Source: a phage
Strand: one strand, 5' to 3'
DNA: 64,000 bases
NCBI GenBank assembly: GCA_032986305.1
Contig: GCA_032986305.1_3672.1
Shown here: positions 19,119 through 56,606 of the stretch, piece after piece
Numbering within the stretch: position 1 is the first letter of the stretch
How the letters are laid out: every line of letters begins with the position of its first letter
Position numbers and translations under genes: made by a program
Notes under the pieces: model-generated
The model's database searches: none
What the model was told of the DNA's origin: nothing
The model's input: only the letters and a program-made list of their open reading frames with translations

Positions 19119-19397
19119 ATGAGCTGTGAAAAATCTTTTTTCTTTATTATTTACGGTAAAGATAACTGCCCACATTGTGTAAGAGCAAAAGAATTTGCAG
19201 TCAGTAAAGGTCTGCCTTTTGTATATAAGACACTTGGCGAGGGTTACACAAAAGAAGAGCTTATTGAGAAGTGCAGTCCAATCGTACCCAGAACGTTGCC
19301 GCAGATCTTCTTAGAAAGCAATCTTGAAAGTGCCCATATAGGCGGTGCCGACGATTTCATCTCTTTTGTTAAGAATGGTTTTGGAGAGAAAAAGTGA
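19119..19397 (+). CDS. glutaredoxin/NrdH-like redoxin
   Basis: 92 aa; CPHC redox motif; between nrdB and nrdD. Confidence 0.7.
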   Translation: MSCEKSFFFIIYGKDNCPHCVRAKEFAVSKGLPFVYKTLGEGYTKEELIEKCSPIVPRTLPQIFLESNLESAHIGGADDFISFVKNGFGEKK

Positions 19398-20254
19398 AAG
19401 TTGTAAAACGGGACGGTAGAGAAGAGGTCTATAACGGAATTAAGGTGATCAAGGCGGCAGAGTCCGCCTTACTTGAGTCTGGACATACTGAAGAAGAAGC
19501 TTACCGGATCGCCTGCGCGGTTAATGAAGTTGTTGCTAACAATCTACCAACCGACCAGTGCACGATCTCTGTAAAAAATATCCATATCCTTGTTGAAGAC
19601 GCTCTTATGGATATGGGTTTAAAATGTGCAGCCAGAGAATACATCCAGTATAGGCAGACAAGAGATAATAACAGAGAGGCAGGTGGAAAACTGCTTGCAG
19701 ATATTAGTGGCTTCTTGGATCGCACTTGTGATGAATTTACAAAAGAAAACGCAAATAAGCCTACCAATCATGTACACACTCATCGTGACCTGCTTGCAGG
19801 CATCCTTAGCAAACACCTTGCATCAACACAGATCCTGCCAGACCGTGTCTCAGAAGAGCACAATAAAGGCTTCATCCATGTGCATGATCTTGACTACTTG
19901 ATCAGTCCGTTAACAAACTGTTGTTTGGTAAATTATCCAGATATGTTGGAAAACGGATTCAACATTGGTAACGCCCATGTCAGTAAGCCGAAGTCAATAG
20001 GGGTTGCAACAACAATCCTTAGCCAAATTTCTAGTGCAGTAGCTAGTGCTCAGTATGGGGGTCAGACTATGAGCCATATTGATCATTATCTGGCACAGTA
20101 TGCTGAGGCGACCTATGAGAAGAATCTTAAATTTTGCCAGGAACACTGGTTGCCAGATGCTGAGACTGTTGCAATGCAAATGACAGATAAAGACGTATTT
20201 GACAGCATGCAGACTTTGCTCTATCAAATCAATACGTTAACCTCTGTCAACGGT
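19394..20254 (+). CDS. nrdD: anaerobic ribonucleotide reductase NrdD, exon 1
   Basis: GFIHVHDLDY...TNCCLV...GNAHVSKPKSIGVATT matches recalled T4 NrdD; ends ...NTLTSVNG then in-frame stop. Confidence 0.8.
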
Positions 20255-20511
20255 TAACAAACTGGCCGTTTTAAAACTCTGCTAACCTCAGTATGAGGGG
20301 TCAGCTGATCGCTGGCTAACGGGGAACGCTAAGGCGAAAGCTATGCCAATCCCGTGACTAGCTTCACAAGGAGTGAGGCGGTTGTAACGACTAACCTTTT
20401 GGTGTAGGGATTATGGAAGATTCCGAAACGCAGAGGTCTGATTAAGAATCACACGGTGTGATTTCAGGCAAGAGATAGTCTGGCCTTGTGGAAACATAAG
20501 GGTGGGGACCG
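20255..20511 (+). mobile_element. group I-type intron 1 in nrdD (ORF-less, 257 nt)
   Basis: Interrupts NrdD between SVNG and QTPF; upstream exon ends in U, intron ends in G. Confidence 0.6.
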
Positions 20512-20811
20512 CAAACCCCTTTTATCACATTAAGTTTAGGTCTGGACACCTCAGTATTTGGTAGAATGATTACCAAAAACTACTTGAAAGTCCACAAAAT
20601 GGGTCTTGGTGAAGAATGTATCACACCTGTGTTCCCTAAAGTGCTGTTCTTCCTAGAAGAGGGTGTCAACATGAACCCTGGAGATCCTAACTATGATTTG
20701 AAACGTTTAGCTCTGGAATGCTCTGCAGAGCGGATTTATCCTGACTTTGTTTCTGTTCCACTAAATCGTAAAGTGACAGGCTCGACAGATGGCAAAGTAA
20801 CGAGCATGGGT
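20512..20811 (+). CDS. nrdD: NrdD exon 2
   Basis: QTPFITLSLG...ITPVFPKVLFFLEEGVN...DPNYDLKRLALEC continues the T4 NrdD alignment. Confidence 0.7.
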
Positions 20812-21573
20812 AAACTATAACTGCTCATGTAAAATCTATCTAAACGGGGAAACTCCAGAACGGACAATCCCGTGCTAAACGTAACAGAACTCCTGACCAA
20901 GAGGAGTCCTGAAATGAGAAAACAAATTCGTGATTTTGAAGGTTATGAAATTGACGAGATGGGCAATGTTTATTGCACCCGCTACGAAAATGAAAGAATT
21001 ATTCATTCGTGGGAAGAGATAAACACAGGTTACCGTCTTGTTAGGATACGCAAGAACAAAAAGACTGTTTGCCTAAGGGTTCACAGACTTGTTGCTGAAG
21101 CGTTCTTACCAAATCCAGACAATTTACCCTATGTTAAGCACAAAGGGGACAACAGGAAAGATAACAGTGTATACAACCTTGAGTGGGGAGCTTGCCCAGA
21201 CAATACGCAAGAAGGATACAACAACAACTGTTATGCTTTTTACACAAGATGCCACGGTGTGAAAGCCACCAACAAATTAACTGGTGAGGTTTTCCACTTT
21301 AAAAGTCTGAGATGTTGTGCTGATGTTTTAGGAGTGGATAGAAAAAGAATATCTGCTATCCTGAAACGTGGTGCGCCTAATAACTATGATTACGAGTTCT
21401 GTTACGAAATGCCTAACGACTAACCGTGATGAATGTAGCGGTGTAGGGTGTAAGCCGATGACACTCGAAATGGTAGACACACTAAGTGTGAAGATATAGT
21501 CTGATCTGCATGGGAACATGCAGCAGCACGTAAAGGTGCGGGGGTGGACTTGCGAACCACCCTGAACATAATG
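20812..21573 (+). mobile_element. group I-type intron 2 in nrdD carrying HNH endonuclease ORF (762 nt)
   Basis: Exon 2 ends ...TSMG (last nt U); exon 3 resumes CRSFLS; intron ends in G. Confidence 0.6.
20914..21423 (+). CDS. HNH homing endonuclease (intron-encoded)
   Basis: RBS AGGAG 7 nt before ATG; VHRLVAEAFLPNP...HKGDNRKDNSVYNLEW typical of phage HNH endonucleases. Confidence 0.7.
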   Translation: MRKQIRDFEGYEIDEMGNVYCTRYENERIIHSWEEINTGYRLVRIRKNKKTVCLRVHRLVAEAFLPNPDNLPYVKHKGDNRKDNSVYNLEWGACPDNTQEGYNNNCYAFYTRCHGVKATNKLTGEVFHFKSLRCCADVLGVDRKRISAILKRGAPNNYDYEFCYEMPND

Positions 21574-22536
21574 TGTAGAAGTTTCTTATCGAAATATAGC
21601 GACCCTGTAACAGGCGAGGAGAAATACCTTGGCAGATTTAACTTAGGCGTTGTTAGCCTTAACCTGCCAATGATTGCGGCAAAAGCCAAGACGGAAGGTG
21701 TTGATTTCTTTGCAGTTCTTGACGAATACTTGGATCTTGCATACGAGGCTCACCTTGTAAGGGTTAATCGTCTAAAAGGAACAAAGGCAGGGCAGAACCC
21801 CATCATGTGGTGTGAAGGCGCTCTTGCTCGCCTGGATCCTGAAGAGAGTGTTGATAAACTCTTCTATGACGGGTACGCTTCCATCAGTATTGGGTATATT
21901 GGTGTGTATGAAACCTGTCAGATTTTGGGTAGAGAGGGTGACAAGGCTTTAGCTCTTGGAATCCTTCAGCACATGAGAGATGCTTGTGAGCGATACAAGA
22001 AGGAAAGTAGACTAGCGTTTAGCTTGTACGGCACTCCTTCTGAGAGTCTATGCTATAAAGCTGCAACCTGTCTGGATCGTGAATATCCGGAAGTGTTGAA
22101 GCACGAGCATGAATATCTCACCAACAGTTTCCATCAGCCAGTATGGATAAATAGCTCTCCTTTTGATAAGTGGGAGTATGAGGAAGGTTTTGCTATGATC
22201 TCCTCTGGTGGCAACATCGGATACGTAGAAACACCTAACCTGAAAAACAACCTGGATGCTTTAGAGGCTCTTGTTGACTTCGGGTATAAACATATTATGT
22301 ACTTCGGTATAAACCAGCCTGTTGACCAATGCTTCAAGTGCGGTTTCCAGGGAGAATTTAAAGCCTCTCCAAGAGGTTTTATATGCCCTTGTTGTGGAAA
22401 CCATGAGGAGGGAACGATCAGTGTAATTAGACGTGTGTCTGGATACCTTTCCAGTCCTAACTCCCGTCCTTACAATAAAGGTAAGCAAGCGGAAGTTATA
22501 GAACGGGTTAAGCACTATGGAAGTTGTAGTTGCTGA
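21574..22536 (+). CDS. nrdD: NrdD exon 3 (glycyl-radical domain)
   Basis: C-terminal Zn site CPCCG and glycyl radical motif RRVSGYL. Confidence 0.8.
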   Translation, partial: CRSFLSKYSDPVTGEEKYLGRFNLGVVSLNLPMIAAKAKTEGVDFFAVLDEYLDLAYEAHLVRVNRLKGTKAGQNPIMWCEGALARLDPEESVDKLFYDGYASISIGYIGVYETCQILGREGDKALALGILQHMRDACERYKKESRLAFSLYGTPSESLCYKAATCLDREYPEVLKHEHEYLTNSFHQPVWINSSPFDKWEYEEGFAMISSGGNIGYVETPNLKNNLDALEALVDFGYKHIMYFGINQPVDQCFKCGFQGEFKASPRGFICPCCGNHEEGTISVIRRVSGYLSSPNSRPYNKGKQAEVIERVKHYGSCSC

Positions 22537-22602
22537 TACTTGACAGAAGCCACAAGGATGTGGCATACTTGGCTAATCTATGAGAACCAAGAGGGATCAA
22601 AG

Positions 22603-23559
22603 ATGCCTAGAGGAAAACAACTTACAACTGAAGAATTTACAAAAAGAGCTAGAGAAGTACATGGCGATAAATATGACTATTCAAAAACCGTATATAAAAC
22701 TGCTAAAAGTAAGGTTGTAATTGTATGCCCTGTTCATGGTGAGTTTACGCAGATCGCTGGACATCATATCCTTGACGGTAGTGGGTGTCCTAAGTGTGGT
22801 AGAGTGCCAGTAGGCAATAAGCTTAGAAACGATTCTAGTGATATTATCAAAAAATTTGTAAAAATCCACGGTGACACCTATGATTATTCTAAGGTTGAAT
22901 ATGTTAACTATAAAACTCCTGTAAAAATTGTATGCCCTGAGCACGGAGTGTTCTTGCAATCCCCATCTAACCATTTGAAAGGCCAAGGGTGCCCTGAGTG
23001 TAGTAAACTCATTAGCGCAGCAAAAAGGAATAAAGGCCCTGAATTCATAGAAAGAGCCAAAGAAATCCATGGCGATAAATATGACTACTCTTTTGTAGAT
23101 TATATGACTTGCGAAGATAAGGTAGAGATAATCTGCAACACTTGTGGAAATCACTTCACCCAGACACCTTCTTGCCACCTGTCTGGTCGTGGATGCCCTA
23201 AATGTGCCAAAAACGGTTTCTTATCTCACAACTATGGGAAGCTTTACCTCATGGTTGATAACTTAGAAGCGCCAACACTTATGAAGATTGGTGTGAGCGT
23301 CAATGTAGAAGCGAGGAAGGGAAGGATATTAAGAGCATCCAAGAAGGCTGGTGCAGGTATTTATGATCTCCACATAGTAAAAACATGGGGCGGATCGACT
23401 GAAAACATGCTGAGTGTAGAAAAATCTGTGCATGAAGCCTTCAATAAGTATAAAATAAACTTCTCTAAAGTATTTAGTGGAAGCACTGAATTCTTTCACT
23501 ACAGACCTGAAGTGTTTAGCATAGTGGAAGCAGTATACAAAGAGATCTGTGGTAAATGA
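22603..23559 (+). CDS. T5orf172/GIY-YIG-like protein with three tandem Zn-binding modules (free-standing homing endonuclease candidate)
   Basis: Three repeats of HGDxYDYS...C..HG.F.Q....HL.G.GCP.C, then KLYLMVDN...KIGVS...R core. Confidence 0.55.
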   Translation: MPRGKQLTTEEFTKRAREVHGDKYDYSKTVYKTAKSKVVIVCPVHGEFTQIAGHHILDGSGCPKCGRVPVGNKLRNDSSDIIKKFVKIHGDTYDYSKVEYVNYKTPVKIVCPEHGVFLQSPSNHLKGQGCPECSKLISAAKRNKGPEFIERAKEIHGDKYDYSFVDYMTCEDKVEIICNTCGNHFTQTPSCHLSGRGCPKCAKNGFLSHNYGKLYLMVDNLEAPTLMKIGVSVNVEARKGRILRASKKAGAGIYDLHIVKTWGGSTENMLSVEKSVHEAFNKYKINFSKVFSGSTEFFHYRPEVFSIVEAVYKEICGK

Positions 23560-53413: not shown

Positions 53414-53664
53414 AATTCTCTCCCAAATCCTCTGCAATCTTATACCAAAATCTCCAGCCAGAAAGCACACGGGAACACCTTGAGGATTGAATCTTTACTT
53501 GGCTCGGAAGTTCTTTTTCCGTATGGTAGGTAGAAATACCCCCCTGCAGATTCGAATATAGCTCCTTCGGTTGTATCTACCACAGCAAGAATTAAGATTT
53601 TAGTCTCCACAGTGCTCTCCTCTCTTAGTTGTTGTGGAAACTATATCACCTCAGAAGATGGTCG

Positions 53665-54129
53665 TCAACACTTTTTGTACTCTACTACAACCACATCAAT
53701 ATCTGTGGTTGCAAGATTAATTACATCTTCTACATGTTCCCACTTTAGACCGCCAATACCGCATCCAATTTTAGGAATGTAGAACGGCAATGACACACCT
53801 TTGAATACCTCGTTGACTCGCTCAAAACCTTTCATTATTGAGAAGTATTCAGCATTGGGCCCTGGGTAGAACTGGGTATACAGGTTGATTCCATATACGA
53901 CCCTGTTCTTGGCAAAATGCTCCCAACAAGAAAACATACCCAGCTTGTCCAGATTACCATAGGCAGTCTCTTTGTCGGCTGCCAGTGCTTGAGGGAACTC
54001 ACGGGCAATATCTTTCGCTATGCCTGCACCCATTGTATGAAAGCAGTTACAACCGTGGATCAGGTGACCAGCACCGCTCTTAAAAAGGGAGATTAAATCT
54101 CCCGCTACAGTATCAATAATCGCGGTATG
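53665..54129 (-). CDS. macrodomain protein, TARG1/OARD1-like ADP-ribosyl hydrolase (start codon unclear)
   Basis: GDLISLFKSGAGHLIHGCNCFHTMGAGIA...PKIGCGIGGLKWE resembles recalled TARG1/DarG macrodomain; reading frame opens at 54129 without ATG, first ATG is internal (54033). Confidence 0.6.
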   Translation of the reverse strand, partial: HTAIIDTVAGDLISLFKSGAGHLIHGCNCFHTMGAGIAKDIAREFPQALAADKETAYGNLDKLGMFSCWEHFAKNRVVYGINLYTQFYPGPNAEYFSIMKGFERVNEVFKGVSLPFYIPKIGCGIGGLKWEHVEDVINLATTDIDVVVVEYKKC

Positions 54130-54538
54130 TCAGCTCCTCTTCCGCAATTTCAAAAAACTCATCCCAACCTTGTGGCATATTTGAGTTGCCGAAGTGGCTT
54201 TCATAGTAAAGGTTCTCACCACTTGGGAGATAGAAATCTGTTACCTCGTAGAATCCACAATCGTCGCACTCGCCTTCTTCAAACTTGGCCTCAACCTTAA
54301 TACCTAGGAAGGTGAAAAGTTTATGGATATCTTCAGTTTCGAACTCCCAGCAGATATTGTTTTCCGCATCGGTGTAGAACTGGATCAGCAGACCATTATC
54401 CAGTTTACCAAAATATTCTGTGAAGTAACTACCTTCCCAGAAATCTTTATGACAAATAATATCCATGCGCTTGCCCATGATAAAGGTGTGGGCGTTTTGG
54501 GCATCGTCACGAATCAGTTTTGGCATTTCATAGATCAT
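54113..54538 (-). CDS. hypothetical protein
   Basis: 141 aa; 3' end overlaps open frame of macrodomain gene. Confidence 0.4.
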   Translation of the reverse strand: MIYEMPKLIRDDAQNAHTFIMGKRMDIICHKDFWEGSYFTEYFGKLDNGLLIQFYTDAENNICWEFETEDIHKLFTFLGIKVEAKFEEGECDDCGFYEVTDFYLPSGENLYYESHFGNSNMPQGWDEFFEIAEEELTYRDY

Positions 54539-55379: not shown

Positions 55380-56606
55380 TTAAAAAGGGATGTCATCATC
55401 AAAGGAGTACTGTGCTGGATTCTGATCCATCGGGTCATCTTCCCCATCATTTACAGGAGGAGCGTCTACAGTGTTTTGCTGTGGAGCTGCTTCCTGTTTG
55501 GCAGCCTTAGGTTCTTGATGGTCAGTTGACCCAGCACCGTTCTTGATCCAATCGTACAACGGCTCAGCCAGATTAGTCAAGACATCTTTTGCTTCTGCAG
55601 TAATTGCCGCTGCAAAATCATCAACTTTCGTTTTCTTGTCAATACGGCGACAAGCGTTCAACACCGCATTACCGACACTGGCACCTACTTCATCTTCAGT
55701 TCGGTTGGTGGCTTGAGCATACTCTTTCTTAAGCTCAATGGTGACTACGTGCAGTGTTTTAGCCACGCCCAGTGGGTCGTCTACCTTAAACCCGCGATCC
55801 AGGATGATCTGCAACGCATTGATGCTATGCCCCGTTTCCACACCGATAGGGTCGTAAGAGGATTTACGCTTGCCACCAGAGCCTTGAGTGCCGTTCTCTG
55901 CCTTAGGAGGATAGGCCTTGAAACCACTGATAATGTTTCCGGTGTCTTTGTCAACAATGGCTGCAACACGACCACCTACCACCAGGTCTTTAAGCTGCTC
56001 ATCAGTTACAACCATAGCACCTTCGCCAATCTTGTGGTCATTAACAGTAACCACGTTGCCAACAATCTGAGTCACATCACCATAGATGCGTAAAACGTCC
56101 TGATTGGCATTCTGCTGAGGTTTCTGCTTCTGGCCTTGTGATTGTGCACCTTGTTGCTGTTTTTGCTGCTGAGTCGCTGCTGGAGCCTCTCCTGCACCCA
56201 GCTTGACCATCTTAGCCAGTGAGCCTTTGTAATAGGTCTTACCGTTATGCTCGTTTGCCTTCAAAGGAATATTTACGATCCATCCCGGCGTTACGGTTTC
56301 CCACTTGTCATCAATTTTAACAGAGACAGAGTCTTGATGACCAGGTTTAAGCAGCTTATCACCCATGCTGATCCAAACTTCTTCACCACCTTGAAGCAGG
56401 TTATCAGAGGAATCCAGTTCAGAAATCAGTAAAGAGATGGTGTGGCTGGATTCAATTTTCTTACCTTGCCACACAGTGGTTTTAATACCTGTTGTAGGAT
56501 CAGCACCTTTGATAGGCTTGATGCTGACACGTTTAATCATGCCGTGAGCCAGTAAAACAGTTTCACGCGGATTCATCGGGTTAGCGAATTGTTGAATAAC
56601 GCTCAT
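55380..56606 (-). CDS. SSB-like protein with host-SSB-type C-terminal tip
   Basis: 408 aa; Gln-rich linker; C-terminus ...YSFDDDIPF identical to E. coli SSB tip DDDIPF. Confidence 0.55.
   Translation of the reverse strand: MSVIQQFANPMNPRETVLLAHGMIKRVSIKPIKGADPTTGIKTTVWQGKKIESSHTISLLISELDSSDNLLQGGEEVWISMGDKLLKPGHQDSVSVKIDDKWETVTPGWIVNIPLKANEHNGKTYYKGSLAKMVKLGAGEAPAATQQQKQQQGAQSQGQKQKPQQNANQDVLRIYGDVTQIVGNVVTVNDHKIGEGAMVVTDEQLKDLVVGGRVAAIVDKDTGNIISGFKAYPPKAENGTQGSGGKRKSSYDPIGVETGHSINALQIILDRGFKVDDPLGVAKTLHVVTIELKKEYAQATNRTEDEVGASVGNAVLNACRRIDKKTKVDDFAAAITAEAKDVLTNLAEPLYDWIKNGAGSTDHQEPKAAKQEAAPQQNTVDAPPVNDGEDDPMDQNPAQYSFDDDIPF

Follow-up and report, generated by a model that had tools for sequence, protein, structure and literature searches.

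The closest described relative of the gene discussed here is tk.4 of phage T4, which was renamed adfM (anti-DarT factor Macrodomain; NP_049723) in a November 2025 preprint that found it to be the single T4 gene conditionally required on a host carrying DarTG2 (bioRxiv 10.1101/2025.11.20.689424). A clean tk.4 knockout is sensitised to DarTG2, and the gene is non-essential on K-12, where 45 of its 46 TA sites are disrupted (supplement of 10.1101/2025.11.20.689424). In bacteria, the housekeeping/stress macrodomain protein SCO6735 of Streptomyces coelicolor (PDB 5E3B) cleaves thymidine-linked ADP-ribose off DNA and confers protection against DarT, and its Gln85 is essential, the Q85A variant being inactive (PMC9411070). 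Further solved members of this fold class are the macrodomains of DarG (M. tuberculosis, 5M3I; T. aquaticus, 5M31/5M3E) and human TARG1/OARD1 (4J5R), whose ALC1-like catalytic type relies on a lysine (DarG K80, TARG1 K84), and yeast Poa1p (6LFQ-6LFU), an ADP-ribose 1''-phosphate phosphatase.

The phage gene and its family are already known, and the copy in phage rV5 has carried the label 'tk.4' since its first annotation. Whereas T4 tk.4 is expressed from an ATG start, we describe here a Vequintavirus copy that has lost its start codon, found in a 64,000-nt stretch of phage DNA (hereafter, the window). Start-codon loss is a mundane cause of a missing start. We consider it likely that this copy is a very recent start-loss allele (null or a strong hypomorph) of a dispensable, accessory tk.4/adfM-like gene, the loss being taken as very recent because the rest of the open reading frame (ORF) is untouched.

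A Tk.4-like macrodomain in a Vequintavirus

The 1.2 kb around the macrodomain gene match 121 phage records, almost all of them Vequintavirus (rV5-like E. coli myoviruses), with WalterGehring/Bas51 as the best match (99.9%). Over 24 kb, the window is at most ~94% identical to any record, which by these comparisons marks it as a distinct mosaic member of Vequintavirus. Sixteen records labelled 'Campylobacter phage' (MG0656xx; C5, C15, A12a, D1 and others) are 94–96% identical to the Vequintavirus region; at least one of these is marked UNVERIFIED and D1 is classified as Vequintavirus, and the probable explanation is mislabelling or contamination by E. coli phages.

Elsewhere in the window, the Sir2 protein proposed by the first-pass annotation is found as a Sir2-family ORF at 1764–2522 on the plus strand (PF02146, E 7e-28). 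On the same strand (19394–23556), the anaerobic ribonucleotide reductase gene nrdD is split: ORF 19394–20254 matches NRDD profile positions 1–154 plus the ATP-cone, ORF 21544–22533 matches positions 263–562 plus the glycyl-radical domain, and a T5orf172/DUF723-type putative homing endonuclease ORF (22540–23556) directly follows the latter. The arrangement resembles that of T4 nrdD and suggests that an intron or endonuclease has inserted here. A homing-endonuclease ORF is also present in rV5 and WalterGehring (rv5_gp208, bas51_0090), at or next to a 408-aa gene that is annotated in JLBYU08 as a putative ssDNA-binding protein and is uninterrupted both in JLBYU08 and in the window (55380–56606, minus strand).

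The macrodomain gene is annotated as a 459-nt CDS in rV5 (gp204, 'tk.4'), Murica (gp091), JLBYU08 (JLBYU08_122) and WalterGehring (bas51_0094). The 152-aa protein encoded in the window is homologous to the 155-aa T4 Tk.4 over its full length (residues 1–150 aligned with Tk.4 1–152; 39% identity, E 1e-43). Both fall into PHROG 335 ('phosphatase'; E 1.4e-59 for the window protein), share the motifs HGCNCFHTMG.G.A and NLYTQF.PGPN, consist of a single domain, and are encoded in an early/middle block of small phage genes, where they overlap the preceding ORF. The earlier idea that the protein might serve as an antidote to DarT has thereby gained experimental backing through its T4 homologue (10.1101/2025.11.20.689424); anti-DarTG2 activity is a genetic demonstration for T4 Tk.4 only, reported in a preprint, and may extend to the Vequintavirus protein.

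Profile and structure searches agree with the first-pass reading of the frame as a complete macrodomain. Pfam Macro (PF01661) scores 25.9 bits against a cut-off of 22 bits (E 1e-5), with only residues 22–53 aligned, which places the protein in the macrodomain superfamily, and a precomputed PF01661 match exists for most of the listed homologues. An AlphaFold2 model built from 84 homologues (pLDDT 96.6, pTM 0.91) predicts the three-layer alpha/beta/alpha macro fold. With this model, Foldseek returns 185 PDB matches at E<=1e-3, with a probability of 1.0 for macrodomains, and the best 50 of the 185 are macrodomains or designs on a macrodomain scaffold. The best Foldseek matches (Poa1p, TARG1, DarG, BT1257 and SCO6735) recur among the PDB sequence matches (Mtb DarG, Poa1p, SCO6735, BT1257 and TARG1).

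Poa1p gives the top Foldseek matches (E 3e-9) and has a similar N-terminal motif (H-S/G-C-N-C…G-G-G-I-A), at 23–24% identity and with an insertion of ~25 residues relative to the window protein. This likeness explains why relatives are annotated as 'phosphatase/Poa1p-like', and the relevance of the Poa1p substrate (Appr1p from tRNA splicing) to a phage is doubtful. The DarG macrodomain of M. tuberculosis is the best PDB sequence match (E 1.4e-5), and the DarG structures and TARG1 reach Foldseek TM values of ~0.73–0.76 with similar ADP-ribose-binding loops (G-x-G-I-A; G-C-G-I/L-x-G-L-x-W). SCO6735 belongs to the same macrodomain class, as indicated by a PDB sequence match (E 3e-5) and a Foldseek match, with ~27% identity over aligned columns; it differs in its longer mobile loop and in not being phage-encoded.

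The first-pass label 'TARG1/DarG-type' suits the fold class, whereas the catalytic residues do not bear it out. In the profile alignment, the position of DarG Lys80 and TARG1 Lys84 is occupied by Gln84, which is invariant across the 84-sequence alignment, and TARG1 Asp125 is replaced by Gly (GCG-L-D-R-LQW in TARG1 vs GCG-I-G-G-LKW here). With both Lys and Asp replaced, the protein would not belong to the TARG1/DarG catalytic type. When the family profile is aligned to the SCO6735 sequence by hhalign, NLYTQ84 falls on NMIGQ85 (probability 98.4%), a predicted match to the Gln of the SCO6735-type catalytic position. Because Gln84 aligns with the essential Gln85 of SCO6735, the AdfM family appears to most resemble a Gln-type DNA de-ADP-ribosylase. 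One relative, an ECD7-like Krischvirus contig of 164.7 kb (L009; IMGVR_UViG_2974573495_000001; 68% identity), encodes Lys at tk.4 codon 84 (NLYTKF), i.e. the DarG/TARG1 catalytic residue at the same position, where the 84 aligned homologues have NLYTQF; this suggests that Gln and Lys may be interchangeable at codon 84 within the family.

The protein is also not a DarG equivalog. It matches NCBIfam antitoxin_DarG (NF048014) with 47.3 bits (E 1.7e-12) against an equivalog cut-off of 250 bits, and the match is confined to positions 4–144 of the 338-position model, the macrodomain part. As a 152-aa single domain, it is without the C-terminal DarT-binding domain of DarG, and no darT is found near the macrodomain gene, whose neighbors are small phage ORFs.

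With dN/dS values of 0.07–0.19 against relatives, the gene is, by this comparison, under purifying selection across the family, and no further macrodomain that might make up for its loss is found in the window by tblastn. The 90%-identity protein cluster of the macrodomain protein (P0001) also includes the unrelated 141-aa product of the upstream ORF, perhaps chained via fusion proteins such as P0017 (see below); the 365 members of this cluster are therefore not a count of intact macrodomain genes.

The family start codon and its substitution

The macrodomain frame lies on the minus strand and is open from 54129 to a TGA stop at 53667–53665, with an in-frame TGA (54130..54132) closing it upstream; its translation reads HTAIIDTVAGDLISLFKSGAGHLIHGCNCFHTMGAGIA...PKIGCGIGGLKWE...KKC. 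The earlier observation that the frame opens at 54129 without a canonical start, and that its first ATG is internal, stands. There is no ATG, GTG or TTG in the frame between 54129 and the ATG at 54031..54033 (Met31), so that the program-made ORF list contains only a 122-aa ORF in this frame, starting from the internal ATG at 54033.

In the relatives, the 459-nt CDS starts with the codon corresponding to 54123–54121. The equivalent span in the window (53665..54123, minus strand; 152 codons plus stop) is intact save for codon 1, and has an 11-nt overlap with the end of the upstream ORF (54113..54538, minus strand), which encodes a 141-aa protein of PHROG 8157, function unknown. Alignment of the start region (relatives CCGTGATTATTGA vs window CCGCGATTATTGA) reveals a T->C change at 54122, which converts GTG into GCG in the macrodomain frame and is synonymous in the upstream ORF (CGT->CGC, Arg). 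In a position-by-position comparison, this is the sole mismatch with WalterGehring between 54735 and 53285 (1,449 nt); codons 2–152 share 100% nucleotide identity with WalterGehring (dN = dS = 0).

The position of the start codon is conserved. By alignment, all relatives have GTG or ATG at the codon homologous to 54123–54121, with GTG in at least 15 Vequintavirus-type sequences and ATG in other, including more distant, relatives. Eight further Vequintaviruses, in the 78–95% identity range, all combine GTG with an intact 152-codon ORF. A degenerate pattern with the start codon left free (NNN) retrieves two metagenome contigs, both with GTG, and has no match in IMG/VR. In distant IMG/VR relatives, among them T4-like and RB49-like phages, the homologous codon is either ATG or GTG, and the N-termini (M-I-[IVK]-…) begin immediately ahead of the first beta-strand. 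Likewise, T4 Tk.4 (MIVKYIKGD start) aligns from Met1 to residue 1 of the window protein, and DNA similarity (~67%) to Krischvirus tk.4 genes starts no more than 2 bases from the start codon (query 80; codon 78–80).

These alignments identify the codon at 54123–54121 as the family start, and they point to a single T->C in the ordinary GTG of the family, rather than an unusual initiation signal, as the reason for the missing start. A canonical start at the conserved N-terminus is a trait of the Tk.4/AdfM family from which the window departs, with GCG replacing GTG/ATG. Two other readings were rejected: an unusual start signal or recoding, as the relatives simply have GTG or ATG at this codon, and an indel or assembly frameshift in the window, as the ORF is co-linear with its relatives and gap-free.

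The GCG allele is rare. A 55-mer centered on the C, searched such that every 28-nt seed had to include the C, has no match in 50,697 phage records, among which its GTG version (the positive control) has seven; the GCG 55-mer likewise retrieves nothing from complete E. coli genomes or plasmids, and a GCG-containing 21-mer, required to match exactly, retrieves nothing from IMG/VR, GTDB genomes or JGI metagenomes. A look-up of the 122-aa internal-ATG product yields four contigs, including Logan contig SRR26490851_49 (133 kb), which shares 100% identity with the window across 3,369 nt and carries GCG, the only occurrence of this allele outside the window among the collections searched. The other contigs have GTG; in one of these, the gene caller preferred the ATG, and another contains a T5->T6 frameshift.

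Such uniqueness, at the one base that sets the region apart from WalterGehring, is also what would be seen if the C at 54122 had arisen in sequencing or assembly, or if the consensus had adopted a minority variant, with the phage really carrying GTG and a normal gene. We regard this as quite unlikely. Although the two assemblies with C at 54122 may derive from the same reads, the base recurs in an independently built Logan contig, and the window cannot be a simple sub-range of SRR26490851_49, as its coordinates would overrun the contig end by 49 kb; the two are therefore at least separate assemblies. Moreover, the region differs from its relatives by substitutions only, with zero indels, which argues against an error-prone assembly, and transitions in a consensus at good coverage are rare. 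A genuine start-codon loss thus remains the preferred reading.

Predicted effect on translation

The family start is located 10 nt downstream of a Shine-Dalgarno (SD)-like AGGAG (54134..54138, minus strand), which carries a ribosome-binding site annotation for the macrodomain gene in phage Murica (NC_041871). The stop codon that ends the preceding ORF lies 8 nt downstream of the family start. In E. coli, initiation at AUG, GUG and UUG amounts to 10–100% of that at AUG, compared to ~1–2% for AUA, AUC, AUU and CUG, and 0.1–1% or less for the other 57 codons (bioRxiv 10.1101/063800). We propose that the Vequintavirus orthologue of tk.4/adfM, a predicted single-domain ADP-ribosyl hydrolase of the Poa1p/TARG1/DarG/SCO6735 fold class, normally has a start codon of its own for translation, which is GTG among Vequintaviruses and ATG further afield in the family, and that one transition has moved this start into the weakest initiation class, while remaining silent in the upstream ORF and leaving the rest of the gene untouched. 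As the nearby ATT codons are weak and badly spaced from the SD sequence as well, synthesis of the full-length protein would probably be cut by one to three orders of magnitude. Its loss would be tolerated if the protein is an accessory counter-defense factor, needed only on hosts with DarTG2-type DNA ADP-ribosylation.

The internal ATG does not appear to offer a way out. The 122-aa product would be without the first two beta-strands, helix 1 and the invariant G24, N26 and C27 (AlphaFold2 model and alignment columns) and is therefore predicted not to be a functional macrodomain, and no SD-like sequence is seen ahead of the ATG at 54033–54031.

Of the three routes offered by the first-pass annotation (a non-ATG start, a frameshift from the upstream ORF, or a recent pseudogene), the comparative data favor the last, in the form of start-codon loss. 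The first route would make use of two in-frame, near-cognate ATT codons, codons 2 and 3 (54115..54120, minus strand), that directly follow the lost start. Enough protein might be made from the ATT at 54120–54118 or 54117–54115, possibly helped by termination-reinitiation at the upstream TGA, with which the second ATT shares one base (ATTGA). E. coli is proven to initiate infC and pcnB at ATT (10.1101/063800). In the AlphaFold2 model, the product would lose merely one or two N-terminal residues ahead of strand 1, and the enzyme may need few copies. However, the two ATT codons lie 13 and 16 nt from the GGAG, outside the usual SD spacing optimum of 5–9 nt, and belong to the class that initiates at 1–2% of AUG, so that only leaky expression is to be expected. 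No relative uses such an arrangement without GTG/ATG, and no conservation points to selection for an ATT start. The fully intact ORF, without secondary decay, fits continued function and a brand-new mutation equally well. Sufficient expression from the ATT codons is therefore, in our view, rather unlikely.

The second route, in which ribosomes would undergo a programmed +1 shift as they finish the upstream ORF (…TAT TGA T…) and so yield a fusion of 141 + ~147 aa, has a practically negligible chance of being correct and was rejected. The macrodomain frame is indeed offset by +1 from that of the upstream ORF, whose stop codon would serve as the shift site, but there is no slippery or re-pairing sequence, and tRNA-Tyr on UAU cannot re-pair on AUU. 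Furthermore, the relatives have their own SD sequence and GTG/ATG, and conservation of the upstream gene does not extend to more distant relatives: in three distant contigs (L007–L009) and T4, it is a different gene or does not overlap in this way. The sole fusion seen (P0017, in contig L047) results from a deletion that destroys the macrodomain.

Two further sequence elements may affect expression around the gene. A 7-bp hairpin followed by a T-run (GGGAGAT-TTA-ATCTCCC, then TTTTT; 54082..54103, minus strand) lies within macrodomain codons 7–14, 10 nt past the stop of the upstream ORF. It is intrinsic-terminator-like in a terminator scan (3 found vs 2.5 expected), is labelled 'terminator' in the Murica annotation, and could attenuate transcription or influence initiation. 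Its stem is kept in relatives, with one compensatory pair (A:T->C:G) in the Krischvirus contig IMGVR_UViG_2974573495_000001. Despite this maintained stem, the case for a conserved RNA element is not convincing, given weak covariation support (35/500 shuffles) and a T-run that relatives do not share. A sigma-70-like promoter match (TTGACG-17 nt-TATAGT, with an extended -10 TG; 53640–53668, minus strand) overlaps the macrodomain stop codon and could drive the downstream small ORFs independently of read-through. The substitution at 54122 itself has a small, uninformative effect on predicted local mRNA folding (-26.8 to -28.1 kcal/mol, same structure).

Recurrent lesions and their implications

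Start-codon loss is not the only lesion of this gene, as four other independent ones are present in related phage contigs. In L047 (Logan ERR11560567_708; 1501-1866), a deletion via CAGTTCTAC microhomology has fused the upstream ORF to the macrodomain C-terminus (P0017), and in L049/L050 (801-1079; two runs), 180 nt are deleted in frame between TGGGAGCAT/TGGGGGCAT repeats. The remaining two are frameshifts, caused by +CT in L051 (801-1094) and by T5->T6 in a T-run in L046 (433-801). Such repeated breakage is consistent with a loss that is tolerated on hosts without DarTG2. Separately, the tk.4 homologue of a T4-like phage (L042; IMGVR_UViG_2706796257_000001, ~585–615) shows an apparent 2-nt deletion just after its ATG (ATGATTAAA-ATATATC vs GTGATTAAAGAATATATC in L026) that leaves no in-frame start; this is possibly another start-region lesion.

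Five different lesions in independent assemblies (the start-codon loss, two microhomology deletions and two repeat-tract frameshifts) also bring up the idea that loss of the adfM-like gene is actively selected in Vequintaviruses instead of being neutral, as might happen if making the enzyme carries a cost or if a host defense senses it. Another idea is that the start-less allele is dosage-tuned, with translation via termination-reinitiation at the ATT codons. We consider these readings very unlikely.

The practical consequences of the start-codon loss are small, and the current understanding of translation and anti-defense is unchanged by it. For annotation, gene callers shorten the macrodomain gene to a meaningless 122-aa product, and its annotation should flag the start-loss allele. 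For the family, the invariant Gln that AdfM proteins have at the DarG/TARG1 Lys position, as in SCO6735, bears on the mechanism of phage AdfM. For the phage itself, the prediction is that it would be sensitive to DarTG2-type defense, unlike its near-identical relatives. Together with WalterGehring/Bas51, the window phage would therefore offer a naturally occurring, near-isogenic comparison by which to ask if the macrodomain of Vequintaviruses acts as an AdfM.
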